In this document: positions 5,284 through 63,287 of the stretch, in pieces
How the letters are laid out: every line of letters starts with the position of its first letter
Position numbering within the stretch: position 1 is the first letter of the stretch
NCBI GenBank assembly: GCA_000165345.1
Contig: CM000429.1
Location: 800,001-864,000, forward strand
Length of the DNA stretch: 64,000 bases
Direction: 5' to 3'
Notes under the pieces: model-generated
Seen by the model: only the letters and a program-made list of their open reading frames with translations
Databases searched by the model: none
Told to the model about the DNA's origin: nothing
Program-made: the position numbers and the translations under genes

Positions 5284-5295
5284 TTTGGCGCCAAA
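5284..5295. promoter_or_regulatory. E2F-like palindromic site TTTGGCGCCAAA in the divergent patatin/TAF7 intergenic region
   Basis: Exact TTTGGCGCCAAA, the classical E2F palindrome. A GC island in AT-rich DNA. Confidence 0.5.
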
Positions 5296-5979
5296 GTTTT
5301 GTTATTGAATAAATTACATAGAGGTTTCTCTTTTTTCAAAGTTATATAGATTTGGACAATATTAAGAAAATATGATAATATGGGAGATTACGTAGATAGT
5401 TATAATTTTTGAACGGTTTAATAGTACTAGATAAAAGGTTTGAAGATTATAATATGGATAAATAATTACGTGGTGAGATATAGGTATTAGTATTTATCAA
5501 AGATGAGGAAATATTAGGAGAGTATAGTTATTAATTTGAATGGAGATTTCTGTGATTCTTTTTTTTATTTTCCCTTTTTTTCTTCTCCAGATAATAAATA
5601 TTTCATTTCTAATTTTCAATGTGAAATCTCATACTTTTTAAAGTTATATTAATTTTCAGAATTAGTATAGTCAGAGTAATTCATAGTTTGACAATTTTAA
5701 CATTAATAAAATAAAAAATTTAGTTTAAGTGTTAATATAAATTATAAACAAATACAATATTACTAAAGTATCTTTAGTTACTTTTCTTTTTGAGCTTAGT
5801 AATAAGTTACTTAGTATATTTATATGTAAATGTGTGCAAGATAAAGAAATAAAGAGAAAGAAGATAAGGGAGAATGAAATAAAGAGGAATGAGCAAAGGA
5901 GTGGAGTGAATTATATTTATTTGTTAAGATAAAAATTCGGAAAAGAAATACTCATTTCTTTTCTTTTTTGAATTAAATA

Positions 5980-5997
5980 TTTTGGCGGGAAATTGGG
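5980..5997 (+). promoter_or_regulatory. E2F-like site TTTTGGCGGGAAATTGGG, ~180 bp upstream of TAF7
   Basis: Near-identical 18-mer recurs at 10058-10076. Confidence 0.55.
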
Positions 5998-6175
5998 TCT
6001 AATATAAAGTCAAATAAAAATATGACTAATAATTTGAGAAAAGGTAAAATAAGGAATGAATTAGAAGGAGTAAAAAGAGGATTAGGAATACTTTGTAAGG
6101 TAGGATAATTAGTTTTCAAAAGACGGAGTATAAGTAAATATATTTATATTCATACATTTATATATATAAATATAT

Positions 6176-7282
6176 ATGGGGATTTCAAAAGCAGAGAGGC
6201 AATTACAATTTGTTCCACAGAGATATTTAAGAAGAGGAATATTTTCCTCTGTAGATTTGTCGAGTTCAATATATTCAGCTCTTCCAGAATCAGTATGTGT
6301 GGTTAAGATACCAGATGCTATTTCAAAGGAAGTTAATAGCTTGTTAAGTAGAGGAGAAAAGTTTCCATTTGGAATTCAACCAACACCGTTTGAAGACTTT
6401 CGTATTTTTGACATTTATTTACTTGGACAAGATTATGTAGGAATTTTGGTAGACCTTCCATGTAATATAGAGGTTTATAAGAGTTTAGATTGTGAGAGTA
6501 TGTTTAAATCAAATAACTTAAACCAAATGCTTTACATTTACGATGCAAATTGTTTACCAAAATGGTTTATTACTTCACAAGGGGTGAATATTTCTTCAAT
6601 ATACAAGGGACCTATGAAATCTAATATGATGTATTCAGATCAAACTTTCGTCTCTTTCATTAAATATTTAAGAGAATCACTTCATTGGGAATGGCCAGCT
6701 GGTTTACTTCCAGCAAGTAGAGGAGTGAGATCTAGAAAGTACAGAAATACTGAATTATTTGATATTGGAGAAGTTATTGAAGCTGAGCAGGAACTATTAG
6801 ATAGAGTTTCAATGCCAAGCCAAGATATGGTAACTATTGATGTTATTTCTACAAAAGAAATGGATGAACAAATTCATTTATTCAAGCATGAACAAAAGAA
6901 TTCTCCTTTTCCTATTGCATCTGTTTTTGACAAGAAAAAGAAAGCAACATGTATGGGGATTATAGGAAGAGATGATGATTTAAGAAGTATGATTTCTAGA
7001 TTTAAAAGGGAAGATTCTCAAAAGAAAGGAGCAAAGCAAAATACTTTAGAATTTGACGATATTCAAAGCGATATCAGTGACGTAATTTTCCGTGAAAGTT
7101 CAGATGATGAGAATAATCCAGATAATAATTTGGAAATGGAACCTAATAATGTCAGAATATCTGAAGAAAATCTATCCAAGACAACAATCAGAGAAAATTC
7201 ATCCAACAACAAACTAGTTATATCAAACGAATTAAGTCTCAACGAAGATTGGGATTCACATGATTCTTCCAGCGATGATTAA
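6176..7282 (+). CDS. TAF7: TFIID subunit TAF7 (TAFII55)-like
   Basis: Segment GILVDLPCNIEVYKSLDCESMFKSNNLNQML matches the conserved TAF7 core (LVDLPCxxExxKTxDkktfyKtxxixQML). Later WPAGLLPASRGVRSRKYR resembles the TAF7 ...HGITxPLKNVRKRRFR motif. Acidic C-terminal tail. Confidence 0.6.
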   Translation: MGISKAERQLQFVPQRYLRRGIFSSVDLSSSIYSALPESVCVVKIPDAISKEVNSLLSRGEKFPFGIQPTPFEDFRIFDIYLLGQDYVGILVDLPCNIEVYKSLDCESMFKSNNLNQMLYIYDANCLPKWFITSQGVNISSIYKGPMKSNMMYSDQTFVSFIKYLRESLHWEWPAGLLPASRGVRSRKYRNTELFDIGEVIEAEQELLDRVSMPSQDMVTIDVISTKEMDEQIHLFKHEQKNSPFPIASVFDKKKKATCMGIIGRDDDLRSMISRFKREDSQKKGAKQNTLEFDDIQSDISDVIFRESSDDENNPDNNLEMEPNNVRISEENLSKTTIRENSSNNKLVISNELSLNEDWDSHDSSSDD

Positions 7283-7663
7283 TTTGATCTTCAAACATCA
7301 TTTGTTTCAACTTTAAACTTTAAAAACCAAAGTTATAAAATAAAGAAAAAAATAAATAAAAATTAAAAATTATTTATTGAGCGCCAAATGCATGCAAACA
7401 CGTAATTAACATTTTTTTTACATGCATGAGTTAAAGCAATTTACCTATATAAGTATAAATATATGTTTATAAAGTTGTATATATTAATTGGACAATTTTT
7501 TTTAATTAGTAGCACCAATTGATTTGCGGTAAATTATAGCAGTGGTATTAATTAGCTGGATTTTAGAATTTGTCCTATTCTTTAATTTAAGGACAGAATA
7601 CAGTATTTCATATTTTCATTTCTTCTATTCTTTTGTCTTCTCTTTCCCCTTTTCTCCTTCACT

Positions 7664-9901: not shown

Positions 9902-10057
9902 ATCCTATCAAAGTGACTCTCCTTGTTCAACTCTTTTTAGCCCTTCTCCTATTACTATATTTTTTTTCCTTCCCTGCAATTTTCTATTTTATATTCCTTG
10001 CGCACAATTTTCTAATTCTCACAGCCTATACATTTGGATAATCTTATAATGGCTCCA

Positions 10058-10076
10058 TTTTGGCGGGAAATTCGGG
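10058..10076 (+). promoter_or_regulatory. E2F-like site TTTTGGCGGGAAATTCGGG in the divergent DLIC/secreted-protein promoter
   Basis: Same extended motif as at 5980. Confidence 0.55.
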
Positions 10077-10343
10077 ATTTTTATATACGCATAATTATTG
10101 GTACCTTAATTGTAAAAAAAATACTGAAGATTAGATAAAATTGTGTAGTATATATTTGTAATTTTTGTTTAGCAGGATCAAATATTGAAGATTAATCAAT
10201 TGATGTATTAACCTATTTATTAAATAACTCAGAACATTTGTATGCAATTTATTTCAGTGTTTGTAAGAGCCCAGTTTGAAAATCCGACTTTATATTACCT
10301 AGAGCAGCCGAGTAAATATTTTAATTGGGATTAATATGTCAAT

Positions 10344-11912: not shown

Positions 11913-12673
11913 AGAATATTTACTTTGTCTTAATACTTAAGTCCTTGTATATTTTAGGTTGTTTTTATGTTTAATTAATACTCGTTATATTTTGATATTA
12001 ATTAACTTTCTTCTATTCTTTATTATTCTTCTTTTCCCATTCTTCTTTCATATTTCCAAATCAATTCTAAATTCATAGGTCAATTTTCATTGTAATTAGT
12101 ACTGAAATTGAATGTGATTCTTCCATGAACTCGAAACTAATTTCTGACAAATATTGATATTGCCACGTAATTCATATTTACATTTAGATTAGGCGGGAAA
12201 TACCTTTTCAATAATTGGTTTGCATGGCATACAAGAGAATAGAGCAGAAATAGTATAAGAGAAAAATATGGTAGAATTGGGTAATAAAATGAAATAAAAA
12301 AATAAGTAAATGAACAGAAAATATGAAATTCGGAAATTAAACAATAGTTAGTGTGAGCCTTAGAGTAGGTAAGTAGCCTGAAAATTTTGAAGATAGTATA
12401 GTACATAAGTGTTTTACATTTACAAAATTGATAACAGTAGGTTCAAAAGGAATTTTTCATAATTTGAAATATCTCATTAATTTACTACATATCAATGTAG
12501 TGGTAATATACATATAATAAACAGATTGGCGCCAAGCCTTAAATCACAATATTATAGTTATTCCCTTTGGAACTTAACTTGCATTACTCTGCTAAATATT
12601 TATTAATACTTTAATGTTATATTGGAATAAACATAGAACTTCCAAAAAATATACCTGATTATAATTTGCTCAC

Positions 12674-13732
12674 TCATTCAATATCAGAGCGGATCTGATT
12701 AGCGACATCTCTAACATTTTTGATAAACTTTTCATCCCTTGACAGCTTGTATTTCTTAGATTTATGTGAACAGCAGGATTGCCTCTTTGAAGAGGTACAT
12801 TTCCTAAGTTTCTTTAAGTTTGATTCAATTTGCTCCTCAAGTGGAGACCAAATTCTGTTAGCAATGGATTGAGATTCAATTAAAATGATTGAAAATTCAT
12901 CAGATACTTTAAAGATCCAAAATGGAAGAATCTTAATTTTCTCTAATAAAGTGTTATCAATATGTCTCAATAGGAATGAAATCTTAGAAATAGTTGCAGC
13001 TTCCTTCTTACTAGGTTTAATAGCTGGGTTTTGCGAGGAAATTGGAGCTGATAAATCTTTAGAAAATTTAATCTTCTTAAATGATGGACTTTTAATAATG
13101 CCCCAAATTAGCTTTGAAAGTTCGAGTAAATTAGAGTTATGAATTTTAGATTTCTTTAGAATCATTTTCAACAGATAAATAAAATCTGATAATCTCGCAT
13201 ACCTTACTTCAATTTTCTTGAACTTATTGCAATATAATTCAAGCTTTTTTGCAACTTTTTTTGGGAATATATTTAATTGAGAGCTTTCAGAATGATGAAA
13301 ACATCTCTGTTTAACCAGCTTCAAGGTTTTGAGAGTTGAACGTGAAGTTGAATATAAGCAATTTGCAATTTCAAAGATATCTTTATTTTTTTTAGAGTCA
13401 CTAATAAGATCGACTTTGAAATATTTACGGTTTATATATAAGCTTTCAGAAAGAGTGTAAATTGCCATTTGCACAGTAAAATCATATCCGGCCCCCTTAG
13501 GAATAGTACTTCTTGCATATTCTGATGATGAATTAAGCTTTATTAAATTTTCCTTTTCTGAGTTTGAAAGCTTTTTAGTGAAAAAGTTGTAAGTTTGTTC
13601 CAATTGTTGGCTGGAAATTCGGAGATTTACGGTATCTGACTTATTAAGATCTAAGTCCAAGGCAGATGCCAAGGCAAAGAATAGAATTTCAAAAAATAAT
13701 TTGAAAGTCAGAATTAATCTAACCTTCATCAT
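12674..13732 (-). CDS. Secreted hypothetical protein (signal peptide)
   Basis: ATG start. N-terminal MMKVRLILTFKLFFEILFFALASA signal peptide. Lys-rich, no recognisable domain. Confidence 0.5.
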   Translation of the reverse strand: MMKVRLILTFKLFFEILFFALASALDLDLNKSDTVNLRISSQQLEQTYNFFTKKLSNSEKENLIKLNSSSEYARSTIPKGAGYDFTVQMAIYTLSESLYINRKYFKVDLISDSKKNKDIFEIANCLYSTSRSTLKTLKLVKQRCFHHSESSQLNIFPKKVAKKLELYCNKFKKIEVRYARLSDFIYLLKMILKKSKIHNSNLLELSKLIWGIIKSPSFKKIKFSKDLSAPISSQNPAIKPSKKEAATISKISFLLRHIDNTLLEKIKILPFWIFKVSDEFSIILIESQSIANRIWSPLEEQIESNLKKLRKCTSSKRQSCCSHKSKKYKLSRDEKFIKNVRDVANQIRSDIE

Positions 13733-13774
13733 AAATTATTTTTCTTCTGAATTAACAAAATTACCAAGGATAAT

Positions 13775-13794
13775 GTGCGCATTTGCGCGGTAAA
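13775..13794. promoter_or_regulatory. E2F-like GTGCGCATTTGCGCGGTAAA upstream of the minus-strand secreted-protein gene
   Basis: TTTGCGCGG fits TTTSGCGCS. Confidence 0.4.
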
Positions 13795-14778: not shown

Positions 14779-14822
14779 GCGGCGCCATATTCAGGCGCCT
14801 GAGATACCGCGCCTACACGTGT
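14779..14822. promoter_or_regulatory. GC island with two GGCGCC cores and CACGTG (GCGGCGCCATATTCAGGCGCCTGAGATACCGCGCCTACACGTG) in the divergent PITH/CHD promoter
   Basis: 44 bp at >60% GC in a ~25% GC intergenic region. Repeated GGCGCC(A/T) units. Confidence 0.5.
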
Positions 14823-15337: not shown

Positions 15338-21505
<6,168 letters not shown>

Positions 21506-22077
21506 TCTTAATCTTGGCCAAGCCAAAAGTTCTAAACAAATACTCGAGCAAAAGAGAATTTTATCTTCACTTGACTAAGCAGAGCTAAAACACCAAAAGC
21601 CCCCTTATCACCATCTATAAATTCATGGAGCAGCTTAGAATTGTCAAGAAGTCATGGTTTAAGTTGGACTTTTTTGTGATTGCCAGTATATAATATTCAA
21701 TTTTCATTAAATATATCAACAAGGGGTTAAGGAGGAGAAGGAATTATCAGACCCGTATTATGATTACGGCTTGTTTCTTCAATTTATCACTTCTAAGCCA
21801 AGAAATGTGTTCAATACTGTGAGATTCTAATGCAAAATCCAATGCGAAATCCAACGCAAAATACAATGCAAAATCATCCTCCTTATTTAACCTCAAATTT
21901 TTATCGAACTCATTTTCCTCCTCTATTTATACTTTTTTTTTCAAACTCTTATAATTATTTATTTTATAAATTTATTTGTTTCTTTTAACTTTTTAATTAT
22001 CAATCTAATCCCATTCTATCCCAATTCCTTTTCTATTCCTATTTACAACATTTAATTTAATTATCCACATAAAATCA

Positions 22078-22147
22078 ATGCATGCATTAATTAATTAATT
22101 AAATTATTTTCCCACGTGTGCATTCAAAGAGAAATTGCATGTGGGGT
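22078..22147. promoter_or_regulatory. TGCATGCA (AP2-type) + CACGTGTG + TGCATGTGGGG (G-box) cluster ~330 bp upstream of the EGF-protein gene
   Basis: Motifs directly visible. Confidence 0.4.
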
Positions 22148-22466
22148 TTTATTTTCTATACCGGTATTTTATTATTCAAAAAATAAAAATAAAAGAAAAT
22201 ATTATTTTAATATTGAAAAAAAAAATTAATAATAATATAACTAGAAATTTGAACTAGGTTTTCAAAATTTAAGGTAATTCAATACTCACAAAAAATTTAT
22301 AAAACCAAAATATTTCATTTTAAAATAAAAAATAAGTTATATCTCCAAAGTTTTATTTAAATTCTGTTTAATTCAAAATACACGTAAGAAATAAAATTAA
22401 ATAAATCATTCATTTTAAGAAATACAAATTTTTATTAATATTATTATATAATGTTATATTATTAAT

Positions 22467-23258
22467 ATGTTACTCCCAAATGAAAATAACTCAAAAGAAA
22501 TAAATAATAATAGCCATATTTCTACTACTCCAAATGATAATTTAATTATTAAAGTTTCTAACCAACTTAGAAATTTGCAAAACTTACCATTTGAATCAAT
22601 TTGTGCTGGTGATCAAACAATCAATTGTGGGGAAAATGGCAAATGTATTTCTTTACCAAATGTTAATAATCAAAAGCAATTCTTATGTGTATGCAGCGAT
22701 GGATTTACTGGTCCATCTTGTAAAACTGGTAAGTTTATTGATCAATTATTTATTCTTTCTTTTAATTTAAAAAAAAAACTCAACTTAGCATGGGACGCTT
22801 GTTTAACTTCTGGGCCTACTTCTCTATGTTTAAATGGTGGAATTTGTACTAGTAAAGATACCCCACCATATTACGAATGTAAATGTACTGTTGGATTCAC
22901 TGGTATTAATTGTGAAGTTGAAAACAATGTCTGCAAAACAAATAATCCATGCCAAAATGGAGGTAAATGTTCATATATTGGAGAAAATTTACCCATTATA
23001 TGTACTTGCCTTACTGGTTACTCTGGTGATTATTGTCAAATTATTGTTAAACATGGCATTGGTGGAGCTGGGGTAAAACTTCATCCAGGACAAATTATTA
23101 TGATATGGGGATTTCTCTTATTTATCCTTGCTACTATTCTATATTGTACATTCTCAGTTGTGTATGATATAATTGTACAAATTAGAGCGAAAAAAAGAAA
23201 AGATCAACAAGAAAAAGATGATGATATGGATTCCCCATCCCAATCTGATGAAAAGTAG
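22467..23258 (+). CDS. EGF-repeat type-I membrane protein (possibly join(22467..22728,22789..23258); 5' signal-peptide exon may be missing)
   Basis: Three or more EGF-like modules (CxCxxGFTGPSC; CKCTVGFTGINCE; CTCLTGYSGDYCQ). These are followed by a TM helix IIMIWGFLLFILATILYCTF and a charged tail. No N-terminal signal peptide in the ORF as drawn. Confidence 0.6.
   Translation: MLLPNENNSKEINNNSHISTTPNDNLIIKVSNQLRNLQNLPFESICAGDQTINCGENGKCISLPNVNNQKQFLCVCSDGFTGPSCKTGKFIDQLFILSFNLKKKLNLAWDACLTSGPTSLCLNGGICTSKDTPPYYECKCTVGFTGINCEVENNVCKTNNPCQNGGKCSYIGENLPIICTCLTGYSGDYCQIIVKHGIGGAGVKLHPGQIIMIWGFLLFILATILYCTFSVVYDIIVQIRAKKRKDQQEKDDDMDSPSQSDEK
22729..22788 (+). other. Candidate in-frame 60-nt intron in the EGF-protein gene (GTAAGTT...CAACTTAG)
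   Basis: Begins with a GTAAGT donor and ends in TTAG. 85% AT. Removal shortens an atypically long 26-aa linker between EGF modules to 6 aa. Its length is a multiple of 3, so the ORF alone cannot decide. Confidence 0.45.
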
Positions 23259-23632
23259 TATTCAACGATTAATTATCACAGATTACTATTATCAATTCAA
23301 TTACAAACTAAATATTAATATTATTATTATCGTAACAAGTAGTTAAATTCGTTTTCTTATTCTATTTCAATTCCCTCTCTCTTTATCTCCTCTCTCTTCC
23401 TCTTTCTTTATTCATCCTTTTATCTCTTCCTATCGCTTTCCCTCCTCTTTTTCCCTTCCTCCTCTCTTCATCATAAAATCATTAATTCTTGGTTTCTATC
23501 CACTTAACTTTCTTCTATTCTCTTACTATTTACTTTACCATTATATTTATTTGAATTAGTCTCACTCTTAACCTCTTTCTCTATTTCTCTCCCCCTCTTT
23601 CTCTTTATCTTTCTTTCTTTCTCTCTCTTTCC

Positions 23633-23683
<51 letters not shown>

Positions 23684-24831
23684 CCCTATTTTTTCTCCTC
23701 TTTTCTTTTTTCGCTGATTAACACCCTAATAATATGTCATAATTCTCTTCTTACATTACCTAAAAATATCTTATCTTATTTTAAATACAAATACAATTTC
23801 AACAACTTTTAAATATTTTATTTAAACTATTTGTTGGTTTTAGCGTTAAAAATTCATCTTTTTCAAAAGAACGAAATCCAAACTTCTTAAACATTAATAA
23901 GTATCTATTTGATTATATTTCCTTTTCCGTTTCTTATTTATTATTTCACTTCTATAATTATTTTCATTCCCTTCTTATTATAAATTATAAACCTGTGTAA
24001 ACTGAACTTTAAAAATTAATATTAATCCATTTTTTCCTATGAATTTATCAATATATTATCCAATAATCATATCATAGAACAAAATCAAAAAATAATAATA
24101 AATAAAATAGAACTCTAATTATTAAGACATAATTATTTTCCAATATTCAAATTTCTCATATTTTTATTTAGGAAAAAAAATAATATAGAATTACCAATAA
24201 TATAATATATATATATATTTATTCATTTATTCTATCCCCTATTTTCCTCAAATATTAATTATTCATTTCTCTCTTTATATTTAATTAATAGGTTTAAAAT
24301 ATTATATATATATTACAATATTTAACTTGCTATTTCGTTATTATAATCCGATAATTATCTATACATGTTTGTGGATTTAATTGTATGTGTTATTATTATT
24401 ATTATATTCATTGCTACTCTAAAAATTAAACCTGTTCATTCTTATCCATTACAATCCTCTAATATTAAGTTCTCATATGTAAAAAAAAATATTGTGTATT
24501 TATCTTTTCTTTATTCTTTAAATCCAAATACAAAAACAAAATAAATCATTTCTACATATTTATATACCAGCCAAACTAAATATATACATATAAATATATT
24601 TGAATAAACCCTTATTAATTAAGACTTTATTTGAAATTAAATATCTTCTCCCATTTTTATTCCTTTAAAGTCTTCTTAAATATATTAAAAGAATATTGTT
24701 GTTCGATTGAGATTTTTTCAAAAAAAGAAAAAGAAAATCCTTGAATTTCAATTATTTTTATGTATATATGTATATATACATAAAAATATATATTAAAATA
24801 ATAAATAAGTATTATTATTGTTTGACCCTTT

Positions 24832-27210: not shown

Positions 27211-27482
27211 TCTAGTTAAATCGATTCGTACCTTCTCTTGAAATTTTTTTTTTTTTGATTTATGTCAACTCAAGAAATTATTCCAATCTTCCAGCCGTAC
27301 CTCGAAACTTATTTCGAAACTTTCCCCAATATGTTTGGCAACCAGCCTCTCACTTCCTCTAATTCAAGCTTCCCTATGTAGACAGTGCACGCAATACTGT
27401 CTATTCACACCAAGATGCAACAAAGCCTTTATTGATTTTTTTTTCTTACGCCTAAACTGCAACTCTTGCCTATTCCTGCTGT

Positions 27483-27503
27483 CCAATGAGCCCGCCTGAA
27501 AAT
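27483..27503. promoter_or_regulatory. CCAAT box + inverted E2F-like GCCCGCCTGAAAA in the divergent aspartyl-protease/CDC20 region; second GCCCGCC at 27721
   Basis: CCAATGAGCCCGCCTGAAAA. Confidence 0.4.
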
Positions 27504-28589
27504 ATAAGGATTTCACAAGAGGGGAAATTCAAAAGTGGGAAAGGACTAAATTTACAGATTTTTCTCACCCCTTTGGGTTTGCTTTGTAATATCCTGACGA
27601 ATTTTGTAATTTCGCAGAAAAACTACAACTATGCAACTTTATCTTATTTTTCTTCTTAATCCTAATTTGAATTGCTTTATAATTATTCTATAATGCAAAA
27701 TTTTTTAGTTGGCCCCCACAGCCCGCCTCATACCTACCTAATAGTACTATTTGACTCGAAGCATAAATCCACGATTTTTTGCATACCGGCATTCATGCAA
27801 ATCAATTGCATGTGGCCTAACCATTTTTTTTTCTGTCCACATGAAAAAAAAAATAATATTTAAGAATGAATTGTGTATCAGAAAAAAGAAAATAATTCAA
27901 TTTCTAAACATGTAAAATTATTATCTAATTGAATTTAAACGACTAAATACAGATTTATTAATTTTTGTGTGAATAACCTAAGTAATCATTAAAAAAATAG
28001 TTGATTATATAAATATTTAATTGTTCATAATATAAATTAGAAAATTCCAAATTTATTAGCCATCTAAATATATATCTGTATATATTAATTTACTCATTTA
28101 ATAATATATTTCATTTGTAAAATATTCTTTAATTATTGAATCTTGAAATCATTGCTGTTCTAAACCCTATTGTATAGCTAAACCATGAGAAATCCTAATT
28201 TAAATTAGCATTGCATAGACGTGTACGTTAGGGACTAAAGGAAAGACATGGAAAATGGCAGTTAGACATAAGGAAAAACAAGTGACTAGTGGTCATTAGA
28301 AGAAGTTGAGCTCCAACATTAGGAAAGATGCCAGATTTTTGACGTAAAGATTAGTGGTAACAAAGCTAGAATTTGGGATTTCCGTAATGCCTTAAGAGTT
28401 GATTACACGAGATAAACATACAGAAGTTAATAATTACTAAAACAAGTTGTGAATAGATTTTTTATAAAGTTAAGAATTGAAGAAACAAATGAAAAACTGA
28501 ATTAAATGAAGAAGAAACAAAGTTAAGTGAACATTATCTAATACAAATATTCTAAATAATCTGGTGGATTTTTTTTTTCCTTATTTAAA

Positions 28590-32251: not shown

Positions 32252-32887
32252 TTTTTTTCAATAATTATTAATATAATATACTAATGTGAGGCAAAATCTT
32301 AAGAGTAACAAGAAGAATTCCAAATAAAACTCTATTTTACTCTTCAATCTCCCAGAAAGTAATTAAGGCAAAAGCCTTTAATATAAAATAGGAAATAAAA
32401 ACACTCTACTGAAAATAAAAAAAGATTAATATCAACCAATGTGACGCTCCTCCAGAAGAATTCGAAGATCCAATAATTCTAATATCTTGGATCCTTATTT
32501 ACTTTCGTTCTCCAGACTCTGCAATACTCCTGGAATAATAATATTCTAGGTTACTATTTATTATCAATTTGTATTAAACTGTATTTGTAATTTGCATATA
32601 TTTTGGTGATTAATATATCAAGATGCATAAATATGTGCATAAATTTTGCACCAATACATGAATCAAAATTAGCTTAAAATAGTAAAACTAATTATTTAAG
32701 TTACCAACAAAAAGTCGAACTTTATGCTCGTAAGTTAATTTCCCCCTGCTCTGCACCTCTCCCCCCCCCTTTCCTACCCCTCAACTCTATTTTACTAATA
32801 CTAACCCATTTATATTATTAATTCCTAATATTGAAATCCCCTCACAATAATAATATCATTCATAAGTAATGTCTATTCCCGCCCAAA

Positions 32888-32898
32888 TTTTGGCGGTA
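32888..32898 (+). promoter_or_regulatory. E2F-like TTTTGGCGGTA ~70 bp upstream of the PIG-M ATG
   Basis: GGCGG core in T-rich context. Confidence 0.4.
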
Positions 32899-32966
32899 TC
32901 GAACTTTTATTTATTTTAATAATTTTTTTTTTTAAGATAATTATCTGGGAAAGATAAAGAGGTGAA

Positions 32967-37043: not shown

Positions 37044-37156
37044 TATCTATCAATTAAAATTTAAAACCTTTGATTCCAATTTTCTAAACCTTTTTCTCTC
37101 CTTATTTTTTGCCTTTTGAAATTATTGATACAAAAATATTTGCATAAAAAATATGC

Positions 37157-37254
37157 AATGGCGCCAACTCTCCCCACGCAATTATAACTTTGTATTGCTA
37201 ATTTTAATGTAAATTCAACAGTTAATATATGTGGGGTGAATTTGGCGGCAAATT
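37157..37254. promoter_or_regulatory. Paired E2F-like sites (AATGGCGCCAAC at 37157; GTGGGGTGAATTTGGCGGCAAATT at 37231-37254) in the divergent GFAT/ankyrin-TM promoter
   Basis: GGCGCCAA and TTTGGCGGCAAA with an adjacent G-box GTGGGG. Confidence 0.5.
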
Positions 37255-37446
37255 GTGAAGGTACCGTAAAGAATTTAAAAAAGGTAATAATGTCGATATA
37301 TTACAAGAAGTGAATACATGAAAATTATATTAATTAATTGATATAAAAAATTAGCAATTAAAATAAAACCAATTAGTTAATTTGGTGATAAATAGTATTG
37401 CGTATATTTTTTTTTAAGAGATTATAATGGATATTTGTGATTAACA

Positions 37447-42651: not shown

Positions 42652-42797
42652 TTTCTAGAATTAATTAAATGTAAAATAGAGCTTTTTAATTACTTCTGAT
42701 GATAGAAATTCAGAAATTTAGATTTTGCCTAACTAAATTTTCTTTTTTTCAATTTTTGACTTTTTATTTCTTGCATTAAATAAAAAGGCTATTAAAG

Positions 42798-42823
42798 AAA
42801 AGGCGCCAATATTTCGGTGGGGT
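42798..42823. promoter_or_regulatory. E2F-like AAAGGCGCCAATATTTCGGTGGGG (with G-box) in the divergent esterase/acidic-protein promoter
   Basis: GGCGCCAA + GTGGGG. Confidence 0.45.
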
Positions 42824-42975
42824 TTAATTCTGCTTTATGTAAGCAGTAAGAAAGGGAAGAACTCACATATACTAAAGGTGTTTATACATATATTTATATA
42901 TGCATATTTGCTGAACCTACTTTCAATTAACTATTCAATACAGAGTCATAAGGGAATAGTTTTGAATTGAAGATA

Positions 42976-46614: not shown

Positions 46615-46648
46615 TTTTTGGCGGTAACCCCTGTCCACATGCATGCAT
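46615..46648 (+). promoter_or_regulatory. TTTTTGGCGGTAACC + CATGCATGCA cluster in a region lacking an annotated downstream start
   Basis: E2F-like plus AP2-like motifs 75 bp upstream of the ATG at 46723. Confidence 0.4.
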
Positions 46649-47065
46649 TAATAATTATTAAAAATGAATCAAAAATGTAGAAATTAAGAGAATTTGTATG
46701 GTTGTTGGTAATATGCGGATAGATGTTTGGTGGAAGAAGAAGAGTTAATGGAGGAGCTCCAGCTCCATTATTATCAAATACAGAACAATCTACATGCCAA
46801 ATAACTAGTAAGTTAATGATAAATGTAGTCAATAAAATAATTAATAATAAATAGGTTTGGTTTACGTAGTTACATCAATTATATCATTGGTTTGTTTAAT
46901 AGTTCCAGTTTTTTTAGTAAGTAAATATACTGCTTGTTGGATATTTGAACTTTAATAATTTAGGCAACTACATGCAGTGACCATAATACATTATGGTTTG
47001 TACAGGTAAGCATAAAGAACATTTTTAAAAGTAACAAAACATTCTGATATTTATTTACTTGTATT

Positions 47066-47413
47066 TTGAAGGTTGTTTTGGGATTAGATTTTGTTTTTAT
47101 TTTTGTATTTATGTATTTGGGTTTATTACCAAATGGGACTGAAAGTGAGTTCAGCAGGTACATTGGGACAGGGGTTGTTATATTGGCGATTCAGTGTATA
47201 ATATTGGCATTTGGTATTTTTGTTTTTATCTCACTACTTTACTATTTACTTAGTAATGGAGACGAGTGTAGAAGTGAATCCATTCTTAATATCACTTTAA
47301 CTTCTATCAATTTATTACACTCAACAATAACAACTTTCACTTCAGTAAAGCTATTATTGAAACTGTTCACATCAATAGCAACCCAGTATAAGACATATGA
47401 TAAGATAGCTTAG
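47066..47413 (+). CDS. Small two-TM membrane protein ORF; probably the 3' exon of a multi-exon gene whose 5' exons lie in 46.7-47.0 kb
   Basis: The hydrophobic ORF (…LGLLPNGTESEFSRYIGTGVVILAIQCIILAFGIFVFISLLYYLL…) starts at a TTG in the track; the first internal ATG is at MYLGLL. Three GTAAG[TC] donors (46808, 46912, 47006) and several poly-T/AG acceptors lie just upstream. An E2F-like plus TGCATGCA promoter cluster sits at 46615-46648. Confidence 0.3.
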   Translation: MKVVLGLDFVFIFVFMYLGLLPNGTESEFSRYIGTGVVILAIQCIILAFGIFVFISLLYYLLSNGDECRSESILNITLTSINLLHSTITTFTSVKLLLKLFTSIATQYKTYDKIA

Positions 47414-50081: not shown

Positions 50082-50092
50082 TTTGCGCGGGC
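50082..50092 (-). promoter_or_regulatory. E2F-like TTTGCGCGGGC ~100 bp upstream of the 818-aa secreted-protein gene (minus strand)
   Basis: Lies in a 175-bp intergenic spacer. Confidence 0.4.
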
Positions 50093-54079: not shown

Positions 54080-54099
54080 CTGGCGCCTTGGCGGGAATT
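54080..54099. promoter_or_regulatory. Tandem E2F-like sites CTGGCGCCTTGGCGGGAATT in the divergent promoter (1272-aa secreted gene / 190-aa gene)
   Basis: GGCGCC immediately followed by GGCGGGAA. Confidence 0.5.
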
Positions 54100-55328: not shown

Positions 55329-55340
55329 TATTAGTTGGAT

Positions 55341-55380
55341 TAATTGCGCCAAATTAATTCTAAATAGTTGGCGCTTAAAC
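55341..55380. promoter_or_regulatory. Two E2F-like sites (AATTGCGCCAAATT ... AGTTGGCGCTTAAAC) upstream of the 912-aa secreted-protein gene
   Basis: TTGCGCCAAA and TTGGCGCTTAAA are 12 bp apart. Confidence 0.45.
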
Positions 55381-55665
55381 GTAGACGAGTATCGCGTAAG
55401 ATTTTTATTATCTTATGCGCAATACCGGGGAGAAATATTTTTATATTTAGTGCCATTTAATTAAAATAAACAACACATTTAGGGGGGGAATAGTTAATTT
55501 ACGTAAGAAAGTTTCTATTTAATTTGTTACATTAATTGTTAAAGTTTTACTAAATCTTGTCTTAATAATTCTTTGATTGGTAATAATTTTAGACAATACA
55601 GACATTAACTTCTCATTAACCGTATTCTTCAGAAAATTTGGTTTTATTAATATTGGTTAATTGAG

Positions 55666-58404: not shown

Positions 58405-59105
58405 ATTACTAACGAATTGCTGCTTCGTCAGAAACTAGAGTATCCTATAACTATTGTTTGGCACTCGGCAGTTCGAATAGCCGAATTATTATTTTACCTA
58501 CTTTAAGATCGATTTTAACTTTAGATTGACCTTCTAAGAACAGAGCTAGTTGGCACTACCAAGATGCCGATAATTAGCGGCTTAAATGTATTTAAGTTTC
58601 TGACATTGATTTAATTCATATCGTTTGAGTTTCTATTAATTTATTTCAAATTCTGTTTATGTTGGACCCTGCTCACCCATACTAAATAATATTGCTACAC
58701 TTAATGTTTCTTTTCAAAATTTAGATCATTGTGAACGTCTGGTCGGTGGACTGGCCAATTGATCTGTTTTAAAGGCTGAAGTTCTTAAATGTACATTTAG
58801 AGAAAGAATACGTGTAAGTGGACCAACCGCGCGACACGATAATCAGGCGCCTATTTGGCAATAATATAATTATCGTCCCTGCGACGATGGCATAATAAAT
58901 TAATCTATTCTAACACAATAATTGTCAAAAACTACCCACATAGTTTGCCGGGCATTTGAGCCCACGGATTTTTTTTTTTAGCAATTTTTTATTTGAAATT
59001 TACATCATAATTAAATCACTCGAGTTTCGGGTTTGTGTGATTGATTGTGAGGGCAAGTGGATTGAGAGACAATTATTAGGAGTGTAATGCAGAGGAGAAG
59101 GGACG

Positions 59106-62093
59106 ATGGAAACAAAAATGAACAACTTAGAAATAGAAAATTGTAAATCAAATGAAAGCAAAAGTTTAGAATGTGAAACGAGTAAAGGCAATCCGCCAGC
59201 TCCGACGAAAATTGTAATCCCAAAGTCTATGATCATTTTTGTTTCAGCAGCAACAGCAATTTCCATGTTTGTATTAGCATTTCATGTAATTCCAACTTTA
59301 GTTGTGAACAAATACTTACTTTTTGAACAAAAAGGGCTTCCACTAAGGACTGATCATAGAATTTTTTCATTCATGAAGCAATCTATAAATACTAAGCCAA
59401 ATAACTTTCGAGGAAATAATGGCTCACCTTCAAATGCATTAGAATTAGAATTTCTAAAATATGGAAGCTCAGAAAGCATTCAATCGTTCAGTAAGAATAG
59501 AAAATTATCGGAGGCGATTCTAAACAATACAAACTCTAGTTTATATACTCATGAAAATAATACTACATATATTTCAGGTAGCCCTACCCTAAATTTTAAT
59601 TCTGATATTAATTCTGTGCCTAATTTAGGATCAACAGAAACAAACTCTAAATTTAATTCAAATTATGTGTGCCATAAATTCGTTTCTATCAGTAAAAGTG
59701 ACTCTACTACTATTGAAAATGAATTTACTCATAACACTAAATGCAAAATTCACTACATTCTAGCAAGGCCTCTTCCAAAGGAATTGAATAAATTAGATTT
59801 GGCAACTATAAATGCTTTTAACCATTTAAGTGAGGCATCTCAGTCGGTTAAAATGATCACTGAAATCCTTGAAAATAAAAAAAAAGATGAGGGACTATTG
59901 ATCTTAATGGCATCAAGAATGAATTACGAACCAGATTGGAAATCATCTTTGGAACGTATTCATACAAATTGGGAATTTAATACAAATGTTTCACAAATTA
60001 TTCTGACTTCCTGGACGATCTCTAAGTCATTTTTCCCTGGACGTCATTATACTCCTGCATTGGATTTTGGTTTCATGATTTTAAATATTCCACAAGAAAG
60101 TGACGATGAATTAACTTCTATGAAGATAAGAGCTTCACTTGATGTTGTAAAGTCGTTTATTTCTAATTTAAATCTTATAATTGATGGAACTCTATCAAAG
60201 TTATTTTCAGGCCCAAACTATAGTATTTTAACAGAGAATAGTTTGACTCAGGATTTATTTACAAATTGGACCTATTTCGATAATTCATTTAGTTTCTTAA
60301 GTAACTATTTTAATAAAAATCAGTCAATGTTACTAGAGGATTATCTGACATCAGCAGCATTAGATGTTTCTAGGTTAATTGAACAATTACCATTGACAAT
60401 TGTAGACTCGGTCATTTTAGCAAAGGATAACTTGGATAATTTATATAAGGGAAACCCAACAGAGCTACGCTATACTAATCCGAATGAGACTCAAGTTGTA
60501 ATTATACCACCAGTAGAACGAAAGAAAATCGCAAAATATAATTATGAAGAAAAGTTTAGAAGAATATGCATCTATCAGGCACATACTGAACAGAGGTCTA
60601 TTCTTAGATCGACACCATCCAGAGCTTCAATGGCTGAGTATGCAAGATATCATGGGTATTCTTACTTCTTATTTGATGGATCATTTTATGATTCTATCCC
60701 AAAACCAGTGATTACAGATTGGTCTAAACAAGGTTTTTATATGAAAATATTTTCAGGTCTTAAGTTACTCTTTTGGAATTTAGATAAAATTGGGGATATT
60801 TTTGGAAAAATTATAAATGATCCAGAAACTAATCTCATGTCAGAAAAGTTCTATTCCGAGTTCTTGGAAAGTGTAATGCCTGACTATTTAAATGTTGATT
60901 GGGATGCACGCCATAATGCAAGGATTGGAAGTACTGGTAAGATTGACTCAAAAGGTTCATCTGGGAAGGAGGGAATTCAAATAACTCCTTCAAATATTAA
61001 GGCTAATGTATGTGACTATATTGTTTGGTTTGATTTAGATATCGTAATTACAAATAAGTTCTTTTCTATTGAAAGAATATTAGATTCAAATACTCCAGAA
61101 TACAATAACAAACCACCTGAAATATTTAGAAATATATACAAGGATGCAGGAGAAGTCGTTTTCTTGGCTGCAAGAGATTCTGAATGGAGAAATAGAAATT
61201 CTTTTGTCAACAGTGGCTTCTTCATTTTGTCTAGGTCAAGAGCTTCTTTACAAACTTTATTCCATACGCTTGCATTGGACCCTGTTAAGTCTCAAGAAGT
61301 CGTGCTAAATGGACGATTTTGGCCTGAACAATCCACTATGGCTCATGCAACGCTTAGTATATTCAACCATTCATTCTCATCTCCAAATCAGACTTACCCC
61401 TTCCTAGACACTAAAATTGACACAGTTAATGATATTAAGAAAAAATTGGTTGGCTCCACCCCCATTATGCTTACTGCCTACTTAGAAGAGATAGATAGAT
61501 ATACACATTCTGTATTAGCAAGCCAAAGGTTTGCTAATGGTTTTATTCATATCTCCCCAGATGCTTATGGAGATGGTCCATGGCATCCTGGTGACTTATT
61601 CGTTCATGCTGCCGGACAGTATAGTCCATTCAGAGACAATGTATTATCTGGACTGCTTTACTCTATCAACACTGTTGGTTTTACTTATGATGAAATTAAC
61701 TACTTTAAAAACTACTGCTATAACTCTTTAGACTTTGTTTACAGAGGTTTGGATAGACTTATTGAAGGGCTGACTCATGAATTTATTGAGTTTGAGAAAG
61801 CAAGGCTAAATGATCCAACTCAACAATTAGAAAACATTAACAATGTTGATTTGACTTTTCACTTTGTGAAAAAACTTATGGCTGTAAAAACTAGGCCTAG
61901 TTCGAAAGATGTTCTCACTCACCCAAACCAAACGAGCTATGAGAAAATTCACTTTTTAAGATGTAACTATTCATTATCTATGGCTACTAAATGGTCTATT
62001 GCTGAAGCATTTGTGTTGGGTGGTATTTCTGTATTTGGTGTTGCTATTATTGCTTTTATTTTTAAATTTGCAAGGTTTTATTCTATTAAGTGA
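59106..62093 (+). CDS. Type-II membrane glycosyltransferase, GT34 (Mnn10/GMA12/XXT)-like catalytic domain
   Basis: N-terminal signal anchor (IIFVSAATAISMFVLAFHVIPTLVV). A second hydrophobic helix lies at the C-terminus. The catalytic region has YIVWFDLDIVITN (the W-[FLM]-D-[LS]-D-x-[LVI] DxD signature of the GT34 family) followed by ...FVNSGFFILSR (compare NAGVFLIRN in GT34). Confidence 0.45.
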   Translation: METKMNNLEIENCKSNESKSLECETSKGNPPAPTKIVIPKSMIIFVSAATAISMFVLAFHVIPTLVVNKYLLFEQKGLPLRTDHRIFSFMKQSINTKPNNFRGNNGSPSNALELEFLKYGSSESIQSFSKNRKLSEAILNNTNSSLYTHENNTTYISGSPTLNFNSDINSVPNLGSTETNSKFNSNYVCHKFVSISKSDSTTIENEFTHNTKCKIHYILARPLPKELNKLDLATINAFNHLSEASQSVKMITEILENKKKDEGLLILMASRMNYEPDWKSSLERIHTNWEFNTNVSQIILTSWTISKSFFPGRHYTPALDFGFMILNIPQESDDELTSMKIRASLDVVKSFISNLNLIIDGTLSKLFSGPNYSILTENSLTQDLFTNWTYFDNSFSFLSNYFNKNQSMLLEDYLTSAALDVSRLIEQLPLTIVDSVILAKDNLDNLYKGNPTELRYTNPNETQVVIIPPVERKKIAKYNYEEKFRRICIYQAHTEQRSILRSTPSRASMAEYARYHGYSYFLFDGSFYDSIPKPVITDWSKQGFYMKIFSGLKLLFWNLDKIGDIFGKIINDPETNLMSEKFYSEFLESVMPDYLNVDWDARHNARIGSTGKIDSKGSSGKEGIQITPSNIKANVCDYIVWFDLDIVITNKFFSIERILDSNTPEYNNKPPEIFRNIYKDAGEVVFLAARDSEWRNRNSFVNSGFFILSRSRASLQTLFHTLALDPVKSQEVVLNGRFWPEQSTMAHATLSIFNHSFSSPNQTYPFLDTKIDTVNDIKKKLVGSTPIMLTAYLEEIDRYTHSVLASQRFANGFIHISPDAYGDGPWHPGDLFVHAAGQYSPFRDNVLSGLLYSINTVGFTYDEINYFKNYCYNSLDFVYRGLDRLIEGLTHEFIEFEKARLNDPTQQLENINNVDLTFHFVKKLMAVKTRPSSKDVLTHPNQTSYEKIHFLRCNYSLSMATKWSIAEAFVLGGISVFGVAIIAFIFKFARFYSIK

Positions 62094-62445
62094 ATCATTT
62101 TACGATGAAATATTTGTATTTAGAATTAGAAAATAGCATTGCCAAATTTTATCGCATAAAGCCATCAATGGCTAATTAATTAGATTATGTACTATCAATT
62201 TTTATATTTTTGATTTTTTTTTTTAATTTCAAATTTTCTATTAGAAATAATAAAAAGTATATATTTTTAACAAAACTAACATTTGTTTTATTCCAACTTT
62301 GAAGCTTAATTTTCTTTATTTAAATTTTAGATTTAAACTTAAAATGAATTTGTATTCGCACAATTTATTCGAGCAATAGAAAAATTCTATTACTAAAAGA
62401 GAAAATTTTATTTCTTGTAGTTTTTAATAGATTTTTTTTTTAAAT

Positions 62446-62757
62446 ATGAAAGTTTTTTATTTAACTAAAATTTTATTTTTGATTCTTATACTAGGCGTAT
62501 TTGTAAAGTCTGAAAACTTTAGATCGGCACAAGAACTAGAGGAAAACACTTCTAATTCTGAAGAAGAAAATCAAAATTCTCCAAAAAACTTCGTTTCAAA
62601 TACTATAAGCGAATATTATAATCACGTTTCAAGTGCAGCTACAAATAAATTCAACGAGGAGACCCAGAAACTCAAAAGCAGATTCAAAGATATGATTCAG
62701 TCTGCAGGGGAAAGTATTAAAAACTTTATCACAGAGAAAGTAAATTTAATTCAATAA
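62446..62757 (+). CDS. Small secreted protein (103 aa)
   Basis: ATG start with signal peptide MKVFYLTKILFLILILGVFVKS. Short acidic mature peptide. Could also be spurious. Confidence 0.35.
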   Translation: MKVFYLTKILFLILILGVFVKSENFRSAQELEENTSNSEEENQNSPKNFVSNTISEYYNHVSSAATNKFNEETQKLKSRFKDMIQSAGESIKNFITEKVNLIQ

Positions 62758-63287
62758 ATTTGTTTTAATGACCTTGGAAATTTCTTAATCTTGGTCAATA
62801 TGTTTCTTTTAGAATAACTCAAAGAGTGAATGCATCCAAACAATTATAATACAGGCTTAAGACTTCTAAATTTGTATGGATTAGTTAAAAAATGGTCACG
62901 AGTTTGTGTTTAACAAACGGTAACATTTCAAACAAGGAAAATTGCAGTGTTAATTGAACATTAATCTGTGGTATGAACTATAAGGAATCCTAACAAGTAT
63001 ATAAGATGGCCTCTGAAAATTTCAAAAGTTTTAAAGAATGAGATAGAGCTGTTTTGAAAAACTTGATAATAATCGGTTAAATTTTTAAATTTTTTTTTTC
63101 AATTCTTTTTTTACTAGCTATTTTTTTTGTAATTAATAAGGCGCGCTCTAAGCTTTTCTTTTTTTTTTTTTTTTTTTTTGCAAGTCGAGTTTAGACAAAA
63201 TATATGAAGATTTTTCTTAAACCATTCAAGAAAATATTGGTGTAAAACGTTGTAATTTTTTTTACTAAATAATTTTTTAATTTAATA

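Follow-up and report, generated by a model that had tools for sequence, protein, structure and literature searches.

What are the short GC-rich sequences that punctuate the AT-rich intergenic DNA of Cryptosporidium parvum, and which protein reads them? The question is raised by a 64-kb stretch from the right arm of chromosome 1 of C. parvum Iowa II (the whole stretch is called the window here), which lies at about 795–859 kb in the coordinates of CP029780.1. The initial annotation had rightly assigned this DNA to Cryptosporidium: its GFAT is 100% identical to that of C. parvum Iowa II, and its proteins have exact matches in assemblies of C. parvum chromosome 1. It had also described a promoter grammar of E2F-like boxes, G-boxes and TGCATGCA (AP2_1) sites, an interpretation that is supported by the analysis reported here, but whose G-box and TGCATGCA parts are overstated for the window. 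The boxes follow the consensus TTTSSCGC, [C/G]GCGC[G/C] or GGCGGG and form short GC/CpG islands. They are almost wholly confined to the regions at gene 5' ends, and are kept at orthologous positions while the flanking DNA diverges. We regard them, with good confidence, as conserved E2F-type cis-regulatory promoter elements of Cryptosporidium.

Gene boundaries were taken from open reading frames and database gene calls, giving 8 divergent, 7 tandem, and 8 convergent intergenic regions (IGRs), the divergent and tandem ones together being the 5' IGRs (n = 15). Divergent IGRs measure 324–1379 bp each and 5.9 kb in total, and coding DNA 49.7 kb. A strict E2F-like core was defined as SGCGCS or GGCGGG, and expected counts were obtained from 500 dinucleotide-preserving shuffles of the same regions. 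The window holds 25 strict cores. Thirteen lie in divergent IGRs, where 0.41 are expected and none of the 500 shuffles reaches 13, and 3 in tandem IGRs (0.43 expected), so that cores are over-represented in 5' IGRs as a whole (16 versus 0.83). Divergent IGRs have 2.2 of them per kb and coding DNA 0.14, an approximately 15-fold difference. The excess in coding DNA (7 cores versus 2.2 expected) was discarded as a signal, 3 of the 7 being overlapping matches in a single (CG)n run; counted by runs, coding DNA holds 16 sites versus 17.7 expected. Unseeded EM motif discovery in the 5' IGRs returned poly-T and low-information compositional models only, and k-mer ranking and scans with published consensus sequences were therefore used instead. 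When the k-mers of 5' intergenic DNA are ranked without bias, GGCGCC, TGGCGC, TTGGCG, and GGCGGG come first among those that are not homopolymers, and 7 of the 8 exact matches to the published consensus DTTGSCGCCH or TTTGGCGGGAAV in the window lie in divergent IGRs. Scans of the 64-kb window for tRNA and Rfam families were empty.

The distribution of the boxes among region classes is equally uneven (Table 1). CpG-containing S-runs of at least 6 bases occur in 8/8 divergent and 6/7 tandem IGRs, that is in 14 of the 15 5' IGRs, versus 1/8 convergent IGRs (Fisher p = 2.5e-4). An equal density in coding and 3' intergenic DNA, which the initial annotation had named as refuting the grammar, is thus not observed. 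As had been claimed for every divergent pair, all 8 divergent IGRs carry at least one strict core between the two start codons, which is what is expected of an element shared by a bidirectional promoter. The boxes are also constrained in position: 19 of 22 sites lie 80–300 bp from the nearest downstream ATG (11.2 expected, P = 6e-4). The sole 5' IGR lacking an E2F-like core is upstream of the EGF-domain gene at 22467, whose promoter, judged from its motifs, looks like an AP2-type one.

Table 1. E2F-like boxes and associated motifs in the window (positions are those of the window; an empty cell means that no value was reported).
Position	Strand	Sequence and type	Location	Remarks
5284..5295		TTTGGCGCCAAA, palindromic E2F-like box	Divergent IGR patatin(-)-TAF7(+), 322 bp to left ATG	Exact match to motif 3 DTTGSCGCCH, both strands
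5980..5997	+	TTTTGGCGGGAAATTGGG, E2F-like box	189 bp upstream of TAF7 ATG (6176)	Exact match to motif 4 TTTGGCGGGAAV; orthologous C. canis IGR has TCCCGCCAAAA and TTTTGGCGCC
7378..7404		TGAGCGCCAAATGCATGCAAACACGTA, E2F half-site + AP2_1 + ACGTG	3'-3' IGR, TAF7 versus 745-aa gene	C. canis GCATGCGTTTGGCGCCAAATG; C. felis CCTTGGCGCCCCATGCAAT
10058..10075	+	TTTTGGCGGGAAATTCGG, E2F-like box	Divergent IGR 9902-10343, 163 and 279 bp from ATGs	TTTTCCCGCCAAAA at equivalent place in C. canis ortholog
12189..12200	+	TTAGGCGGGAAA	3'-3' IGR 11913-12673	
12525..12535		ATTGGCGCCAA	3'-3' IGR 11913-12673	
13782..13794		TTTGCGCGGTAAA, relaxed E2F-like box	~50 bp upstream of ATG 13732 (352-aa gene, - strand)	
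14779..14822		Cluster GCGGCGCC / TCAGGCGCCTGA / CCGCGCC, then CACGTG	Divergent IGR PITH(-)-CHD1(+), 132-159 bp from PITH ATG	
22078..22146	+	ATGCATGCAT ... CACGTG ... GTGGGG	Upstream of EGF-domain gene at 22467	
27488..27498	-	TTCAGGCGGGC	283 bp upstream of CpASP2 ATG (27210)	TTCAGGCGGG kept in C. ubiquitum, C. felis, C. bovis
27714..27727		CCCCAC-A-GCCCGCC, G-box abutting E2F-like core		
32876..32900		TTCCCGCCCAAATTTTGGCGGTA, double E2F-like box	~70-90 bp upstream of mannosyltransferase ATG (32967)	AGGCGGGAAAA in C. ubiquitum; AGGCGCCAAG in C. felis
37157..37177		AATGGCGCCAACTCTCCCCAC, G-box-N4-TTGGCGCC composite on GFAT strand	119 bp upstream of GFAT ATG	
37231..37252	+	GTGGGGTGAATTTGGCGGCAAA, second G-box + E2F composite	Bidirectional region 37044-37446, ~200 bp from both ATGs	C. 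ubiquitum version TTTGCCGCCAAAACACACCCC
42802..42822		GGCGCCAATATTTCGGTGGGG, E2F + G-box composite	Divergent IGR 42652-42975, 153 and 171 bp from ATGs	CCCCAC..TTGGCGCC in C. ubiquitum and C. felis
46615..46648	+	TTTTTGGCGGTAAC then ATGCATGCAT	75-108 bp upstream of ATG, gene 46723-47413	
50082..50092		TTTGCGCGGGC	108 bp upstream of ATG 49980 (814-aa gene, - strand)	
54080..54099		CTGGCGCCTTGGCGGGAATT, tandem E2F-like pair	110-118 bp upstream of ATG 53974	
55341..55380		TTGCGCCAAA + TTGGCGCTTAAA, relaxed half-site boxes	~290-320 bp upstream of ATG 55666	
58827..58851		CCGCGCG + TCAGGCGCCTA	257-275 bp upstream of ATG 59106	TACGTGT precedes
63138..63146		AAGGCGCGC	138 bp upstream of ATG 63281	

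Every sequence quoted in the initial annotation is present at its position, those at 27490 and 27721 reading GGCGGGC on the reverse strand, and the two 18-mers at 5980 and 10058, described as near-identical, agree at 17 of 18 positions. The cluster at 14779–14822, made up of GCGGCGCC, CAGGCGCCTG, and CCGCGCC, is present, 14822 being its end and not a separate site. The sites at 7389, 12192, and 12526 had been placed among 5' regions and actually lie in annotated 3'-3' regions, and the 46.6-kb locus, proposed as an unannotated transcription unit, corresponds to a small intron-containing gene that existing annotation includes.

The sites recur in other species. C. ubiquitum, C. felis, and C. canis all have E2F-like sites in the syntenic 5' regions. 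The signal is fainter in C. bovis, C. andersoni, and one further Cryptosporidium species; among the distant species, strict cores are present in only 1 of 4 5' IGRs of C. bovis and 1 of 5 of C. andersoni. Over 7 syntenic loci in 6 other species, the site count is 18 in 5' IGRs (3.4 expected) and 14 in coding DNA (20.7 expected). Between C. parvum and C. ubiquitum, 92% of core positions are identical versus 72% of the rest of the 5' IGR (p = 0.003). The sites are thereby conserved between orthologs, as sites under purifying selection should be, and this conservation of position spans species of 28–48% GC. In the second syntenic block of C. canis and C. felis, sites are as numerous in convergent IGRs as in 5' IGRs.

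The other two motifs of the proposed grammar are less widespread: the statement that it occupies almost every 5' region holds for the E2F box (14/15) and has to be limited to it, since the G-box is found in merely 4/15 5' IGRs and GCATGC/TGCATGCA in 2/15. The G-box, G[T/C]GGGG, is nevertheless enriched in 5' IGRs (5 copies versus 0.64 expected; 8 versus 6.3 in coding DNA), and 4 of these 5 copies lie 1–9 nt from an E2F core (P about 1e-4), which concerns 3 of the 8 divergent promoters. The GTGGGG motifs reported as partners of E2F boxes form such composites at 37231 and 42817, whereas the one at 22141 pairs with TGCATGCA. Upstream of GFAT, alignment shows the block GTGGGG-N4-TTGGCGC to be kept in C. 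parvum, C. ubiquitum, C. bovis, and C. felis, and the composite is echoed at three further promoters. No enrichment of AP2_1 sites was found in the 5' IGRs of the window: GCATGC occurs twice (0.64 expected), a count reached by 66 of 500 shuffles, is absent from divergent IGRs, and is present 7 times in coding DNA (5 expected). Of the 7 copies of TGCATGCA, 4 are coding and 1 is in a 3'-3' IGR.

How would such boxes work? C. parvum has two annotated E2F and two annotated DP genes, namely cgd1_1560, cgd6_1430, cgd7_3650, and cgd8_1850, none of them encoded within the window, and Cryptosporidium is reported to be the sole apicomplexan genus to have retained these factors. From the resemblance of the boxes to known sites and from the literature, the E2F/DP winged-helix heterodimers of the parasite would bind the boxes, and their binding would mark a nucleosome-free promoter core immediately ahead of where transcription begins. 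Since the core is a palindrome or nearly so, a single box or box cluster could serve both genes of a divergent pair. The G-box, to which the ApiAP2 protein cgd8_810 binds in vitro and which its Plasmodium counterpart binds too, is probably a second, stage-specific input where it lies 1–9 nt from the E2F core, and AP2_1 sites probably another such input, less often. It is the same hexamer as the general apicomplexan G-box; here it differs in rarely standing alone, 4 of the 5 copies abutting an E2F core, and in the fixed 4-nt spacer at GFAT in four species.

The canonical E2F site of animals and plants is TTTSSCGC, as in the Arabidopsis sites TTTCCCGCC and TTTGGCGGG, and the box most often takes the forms TTTGGCGGGAAA, TTTGGCGCCAAA, and TTTGGCGGCAAA, all of them textbook E2F sites. 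Roughly a third of the boxes share both the core and the T/A flanks with these sites, and they are likewise promoter-proximal; among 21 cores, T-run/A-run flanks are found on both sides in about 7, on one side in about 6, and on neither in about 8, and the window holds 6 exact matches to TTTSSCGCS. The difference lies in the genes concerned: E2F sites tag the genes of a cell-cycle regulon in animals and plants, whereas the Cryptosporidium boxes precede most genes, here in 14 of 15 5' regions and with unrelated functions. The boxes might be conserved promoter elements of which all, or a subclass, are read by a C2H2 zinc-finger, Myb, or AP2 protein whose targets would be GC cores containing CpG, for example TCAGGCGSS or AGGCGCCT. 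These last forms lack the canonical flanks and could belong to another factor; TCAGGCG occurs 4 times in 5' IGRs versus once in 50 kb of genes, and TTCAGGCGGG is kept in 4 species. No direct E2F/DP binding in Cryptosporidium was found in the literature searched, which leaves room for such a factor. However, the commonest forms are those of E2F, surveys of C. parvum AP2 domains by PBM did not recover the motif, and Tomtom assigns the motifs of ATAC peaks to E2F1 and E2F6, so that a different reader, for the boxes as a class or for part of them, appears unlikely.

Two further explanations do without sequence-specific activation of the adjacent genes. The boxes could mainly be chromatin or boundary elements, acting for instance as insulators between transcription units, as marks of replication origins, or by excluding nucleosomes. 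In sporozoites they overlap open chromatin (Xiao et al. 2025, bioRxiv 10.1101/2025.01.17.633476), they are found between units of either orientation, including two 3'-3' IGRs and the internal spacers of polycistrons, and the expression clusters that bear the motif peak at any sampled time point. A general boundary element would not, however, be predicted to be missing from 7 of the 8 convergent IGRs; it is poly(dA:dT) runs, and not E2F-like boxes, that are common to all IGR classes, and the constrained 80–300 bp distance to the ATG fits a promoter element. We consider this explanation very improbable. Still less credit can be given to a compositional artefact, in which GC hexamers are merely conspicuous in AT-rich DNA and follow local GC content. 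The 5' IGRs are slightly richer in GC (26–27%) than the convergent ones (23%), and the sites were initially chosen by eye, relaxed matches included. Yet coding DNA is richer still (34%) with a core density about 15-fold lower, and the artefact is refuted by the shuffles (0.4–0.8 cores versus 13–16 observed), by conservation at orthologous positions across the whole GC range of the genus members compared, by the identity difference between cores and flanks, and by the constrained distance to the ATG.

Boxes in 3'-3' regions call for a reading of their own. Those at 7.38 kb and 12.2/12.5 kb are common to C. parvum, C. canis, and C. felis, the orthologs of IGR 11913-12673 in the latter two also bearing E2F-like boxes; in C. 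andersoni this IGR is just 127 bp long and lacks one. TGCATGCA abuts the site at 7378-7396 and, for the 12.2/12.5 kb region, is found solely in the C. felis ortholog; TGCATGC lies near the 3'-3' E2F sites in most species. No gene is annotated at IGR 11913-12673 in CP029780.1 or CM109961.1, the 89/101-aa ORF at 12.2 kb was dismissed as low-complexity, and tblastn of both regions against C. canis, C. felis, and C. andersoni revealed no meaningful conserved ORF. Most likely these boxes promote the transcription of unannotated non-coding RNAs, mostly antisense, and the regions are probably lncRNA promoters. In the 100 bp preceding 396 C. parvum lncRNAs, E2F and AP2_1 rank first among the motifs (Li et al. 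2021, PMC7840661), and the regions resemble these lncRNAs in motif pair and in their 3'-3' location, where antisense lncRNAs start; the difference is that no lncRNA could be matched to the two places among the sequences listed. The supplements of the published lncRNA study list none of the gene IDs cgd1_36xx/37xx, and 12 sequence probes for the 3'-3' sites found no match among the lncRNA sequences listed there. The motif string TGAGCGCCAAA is listed for Cp_lnc_6 and Cp_lnc_21, and Cp_lnc_6 was rejected as a match, its second site not being in the window, while no place was found for Cp_lnc_21. Taken jointly, the fixed spacing of GTGGGG-N4-TTGGCGC at GFAT and the marking of unannotated non-coding units by conserved, ORF-less 3'-3' boxes, neither of which was found in the literature searched, make up a tentative and somewhat doubtful proposal. 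If it is true, the GFAT composite would imply that the G-box ApiAP2 protein and E2F/DP bind cooperatively or competitively, on one face of the DNA, and the boxes would mark conserved, still unannotated non-coding transcription units in two 3'-3' regions.

The E2F-type promoter code itself has been described before (Bankier 2003, as cited; Oberstaller 2013/2014; Li 2021; Xiao 2025). According to Oberstaller et al. (2013, PMC3734150), Bankier et al. (2003) were the first to note E2F-like motifs, on chromosome 6, and the motifs over-represented upstream of C. parvum genes include DTTGSCGCCH (motif 3), TTTGGCGGGAAV (motif 4), the G-box, and BGCATGCAH, a set that the motifs of the window match, as had been proposed. 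Organism, sequences (8 exact matches), upstream location, and over-representation are the same and nothing essential differs, the window being a local instance of that result; the main text of that paper does not describe the ATG-distance constraint, the 8/8 divergent coverage, the cross-species footprint, or the tight G-box adjacency. In sporozoite ATAC-seq, one E2F box per open-chromatin peak is likewise found at transcript 5' ends, and the motif also occurs in polycistron spacers (Xiao et al. 2025, bioRxiv 10.1101/2025.01.17.633476); that study differs in finding no AP2 motifs in sporozoite open chromatin, whereas here G-boxes adjoin E2F cores in 3/8 divergent promoters. With a code published since 2003–2013, the present finding is correct and ordinary, and brings no biology that the published motif studies do not already contain. 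What it adds is an independent 64-kb sample with cross-species footprints, confirming E2F-type boxes as a near-universal promoter mark of Cryptosporidium, in keeping with the published view that this genus leans on its retained E2F/DP and other apicomplexans on ApiAP2 proteins.

The boxes are also useful for annotation, as for the two candidate non-coding transcription units, the gap at 391-744, and the start of C. felis GFAT. The start codon of the latter is flagged by the boxes as probably mis-called. The gap at 391-744 bears no box because it is an intron.

E2F-like boxes, candidate Cryptosporidium promoter elements, are over-represented in the 5' intergenic regions (IGRs) of the window, lie at a constrained distance from start codons, and are conserved in other Cryptosporidium species. 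The window has a GC content of 32%, with densely packed long ORFs, mostly devoid of introns. Its taxonomic assignment to Cryptosporidium, made at first from sequence alone, is confirmed by the GFAT protein, which is 100% identical to that of C. parvum Iowa II, and by exact matches of window proteins on the chromosome 1 records CP029780.1, CP141118.1, and CP044422.1. A gene map built from ATG-ORFs, then corrected by database gene calls, comprises 24 genes and 8 divergent, 7 tandem, and 8 convergent (3'-3') IGRs. As the two ORFs of the 715-aa product are annotated as one, the gap between them (391-744) is an intron and not an IGR, a status with which the absence of any E2F-like box there fits.

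Strict cores ([CG]GCGC[CG] or GGCGGG) were counted per region class on both strands of the whole window. They number 13 in 5.9 kb of divergent IGRs (2.19 per kb), 3 in 4.3 kb of tandem IGRs (0.70 per kb, with 391-744 counted as tandem), 2 in 4.1 kb of convergent IGRs (0.49 per kb), and 7 in 49.7 kb of coding sequence (0.14 per kb); the equal density in coding and 3' intergenic DNA that the initial annotation had named as contrary to its proposal is not what these counts give. Dinucleotide-preserving shuffles predict 0.41 cores for the divergent IGRs and 0.83 for the 5' IGRs taken together, and none of 500 equalled the observed counts in either set. An unbiased ranking of k-mers in 5' IGR DNA is headed, beside poly-A/T, by GGCGCC, TGGCGC, AGGCGC, TTGGCG, and GGCGGG, and seven of the eight exact matches to the published consensus strings DTTGSCGCCH and TTTGGCGGGAAV in the window fall in divergent IGRs. 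Under a relaxed definition (a G/C run of at least 6 bases with a CpG inside), which also takes in the relaxed sites proposed initially, a site is present in 8/8 divergent, 6/7 tandem, and 1/8 convergent IGRs (Fisher p = 2.5e-4), whereas genes carry 16 against 17.7 expected, that is, no excess. Each divergent pair therefore does have a site between its start codons, as had been claimed. The string quoted at every listed coordinate is present, although 14822 is merely the end of a cluster and not a separate site. Those at 27490 and 27721 both read GGCGGGC on the reverse strand, and the near-identical 18-mers at 5980 and 10058 differ by one base. The 46.6 kb site, taken as a pointer to a transcription unit, is indeed followed by a small gene, but one already annotated.

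Features of the window, with positions and context
Feature	Position	Context or remark
Strict core GGCGGGAAA	12192	convergent IGR 11913-12673
Strict core TTGGCGCCAA	12528	convergent IGR 11913-12673
Relaxed site fused to TGCATGCA	7378-7396	convergent IGR 7283-7663
Variant box TCAGGCG(C/G)(C/G)	14791-14802, 27488-27498, 58843-58852	without canonical E2F T/A flanks
ACGTG-containing element	7398, 12164, 14815, 22113, 22380, 28219, 58809	
715-aa product	ORFs 1-390 and 745-1953, joined	NCBI annotations of CP029780.1 and CM109961.1
Mannosyltransferase gene	start 32967	contains intron; database gene call
Small intron-containing gene	46723-47413	already annotated; preceded by the 46.6 kb site

For 19 of the 22 sites in 5' IGRs, the nearest downstream ATG is 80-300 bp away (median 155 bp), whereas uniform placement in the same IGRs would put 11.2 sites there (P = 6e-4). 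The boxes thus avoid the distal ends of long IGRs and the first ~80 bp before the ATG, presumably the 5' UTR. In the 1.38-kb divergent IGR 27211-28589, both boxes lie toward the aspartyl protease gene CpASP2, whose ATG is 283 and 514 bp away, and 865-1096 bp from the ATG of the opposite CDC20-like WD40 gene, an asymmetry that recurs in the other species. The WD40 gene may use a different promoter or have an intron or a long 5' UTR.

The grammar claimed for nearly all 5' IGRs holds for the E2F-like box but not for its companions. The G-box (GTGGGG) has 5 copies in 5' IGRs versus 0.64 expected, in just 4 of 15, and GCATGC is not enriched in the window (2 copies in 5' IGRs, none of them divergent; 7 in coding sequence versus 5 expected). 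An E2F core is 1-9 nt away from four of the five G-box copies (P about 1e-4), so that the G-box acts like one component of a composite element. In the sole 5' IGR that lacks an E2F-like core, 21506-22466 in front of an EGF-domain gene, TGCATGCA, CACGTG, and GTGGGG are present instead. An ACGTG-containing element (ACACGT/ACGTGT, TACGTG, CACGTG), absent from the initial annotation, has a density in IGRs ~25 times that in genes. An E2F box or TGCATGCA is often present no more than 30 nt away, and the element is also seen as TTACGTGGGG in the cross-species alignment upstream of GFAT.

Seven syntenic loci of ~20 kb, anchored on GFAT and the PITH protein, were fetched: two from C. felis and one each from C. 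ubiquitum, C. bovis, C. canis, C. andersoni, and a further Cryptosporidium species. All of them keep the gene order and orientation. The GC content of the loci is 28-33% in C. bovis, C. andersoni, C. parvum, and C. ubiquitum but much higher in C. felis (40%) and C. canis (48%), which gives these motifs a higher chance background in the latter two. The pooled counts are 18 strict cores in 17.8 kb of 5' IGRs versus 3.4 expected, 10 in 12.2 kb of convergent IGRs versus 1.8, and 14 in 118 kb of coding sequence versus 20.7. In the first syntenic block, 12 cores are in divergent IGRs, none in convergent IGRs, and 2 in coding sequence. Of five C. parvum cores, four have a strict core as their counterpart at the corresponding place in C. 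ubiquitum, three of them with the identical hexamer, and identity between these species is 92% at core positions versus 72% in the remaining 5' IGR (p = 0.003). Conservation occurs as islands in the alignments: ACGTGGGG-N4-TTGGCGCC..TGCAT upstream of GFAT is aligned in C. parvum, C. ubiquitum, and C. bovis, with the same block in C. felis, CCCCAC..TTGGCGCC upstream of the abhydrolase gene is kept in three species, and TTCAGGCGGG upstream of CpASP2 in four. In C. bovis and C. andersoni the signal is faint, with strict cores present in 1 of 4 and 1 of 5 5' IGRs, respectively.

C. parvum genes include two E2F and two DP (literature). E2F/DP heterodimers would sit on the boxes at a nucleosome-free promoter core, the palindromic core would work for both genes of a divergent pair, and adjoining G-box or TGCATGCA sites would add ApiAP2 input. 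About a third of the cores, among them notably those of the TCAGGCGSS type, lack T/A flanks, and hence a second factor, other than E2F/DP, may read some of the boxes. This variant has 4 copies in 5' IGRs and one in 50 kb of genes; at 14791 it takes the form of the palindrome TCAGGCGCCTGA.

Both strict cores found in convergent IGRs fall in a single one, and the relaxed site near 7.38 kb in another. At both places E2F-like boxes are also present in C. canis and C. felis, within the orthologous IGRs, most of them adjoining GCATGC; C. andersoni has none in either, the 12-kb-site IGR being just 127 bp there. Neither place (7.38 kb, 12.2/12.5 kb) has a conserved ORF, an annotated gene in two NCBI assemblies, or a match to a published lncRNA among the supplement sequences listed. 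In the 100 bp preceding 396 lncRNAs, most of them antisense and starting close to the 3' ends of coding genes, E2F/DP1 and ApiAP2_1 are reported as the two leading motifs (Li et al. 2021, PMC7840661), and candidate lncRNA promoters would be the most economical explanation of these boxes.

The interpretation put forward initially is upheld, and the finding is already known, as the motif set is the published one for Cryptosporidium promoters (Bankier 2003, as cited; Mullapudi 2007; Oberstaller 2013, PMC3734150; Oberstaller 2014; Li 2021, PMC7840661; Xiao 2025, bioRxiv 10.1101/2025.01.17.633476). Four modest additions, based on about 64 kb and seven syntenic loci, were not found in the papers examined: the distance window relative to the ATG, the footprints across species, the close spacing of G-box and E2F core, and the conserved boxes in two 3'-3' IGRs.

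The 3'-3' IGR 23259-24831 is unusually long for this compact genome (1.57 kb, 22% GC), and scans of it gave no E2F-like box, G-box, GCATGC, tRNA, or Rfam match. A CGCGCGCGCGGG run at 17222-17233, in the CHD1-like helicase coding region, accounts for 3/7 of the coding strict-core matches, and a (CG)n run of greater length is present in C. canis, in a 3'-3' IGR of its syntenic locus (L020, about 1744-1760). The C. felis GFAT is annotated as 728 aa, whereas the C. parvum and C. ubiquitum proteins have 696 aa, and its annotated ATG falls within AATGTGGGGATCTTGGCGCC (locus L013, 10001-10020), which is the G-box-N4-E2F block conserved in the promoter; the annotation probably sets the start ~32 codons too far upstream. 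Finally, the divergent, tandem, and convergent IGRs alike contain A or T homopolymer runs of at least 8 bases at 2.0-2.8 per kb, as compared with 0.28 per kb in genes, and poly(dA:dT) is a feature of intergenic DNA generally, with no 5' specificity.
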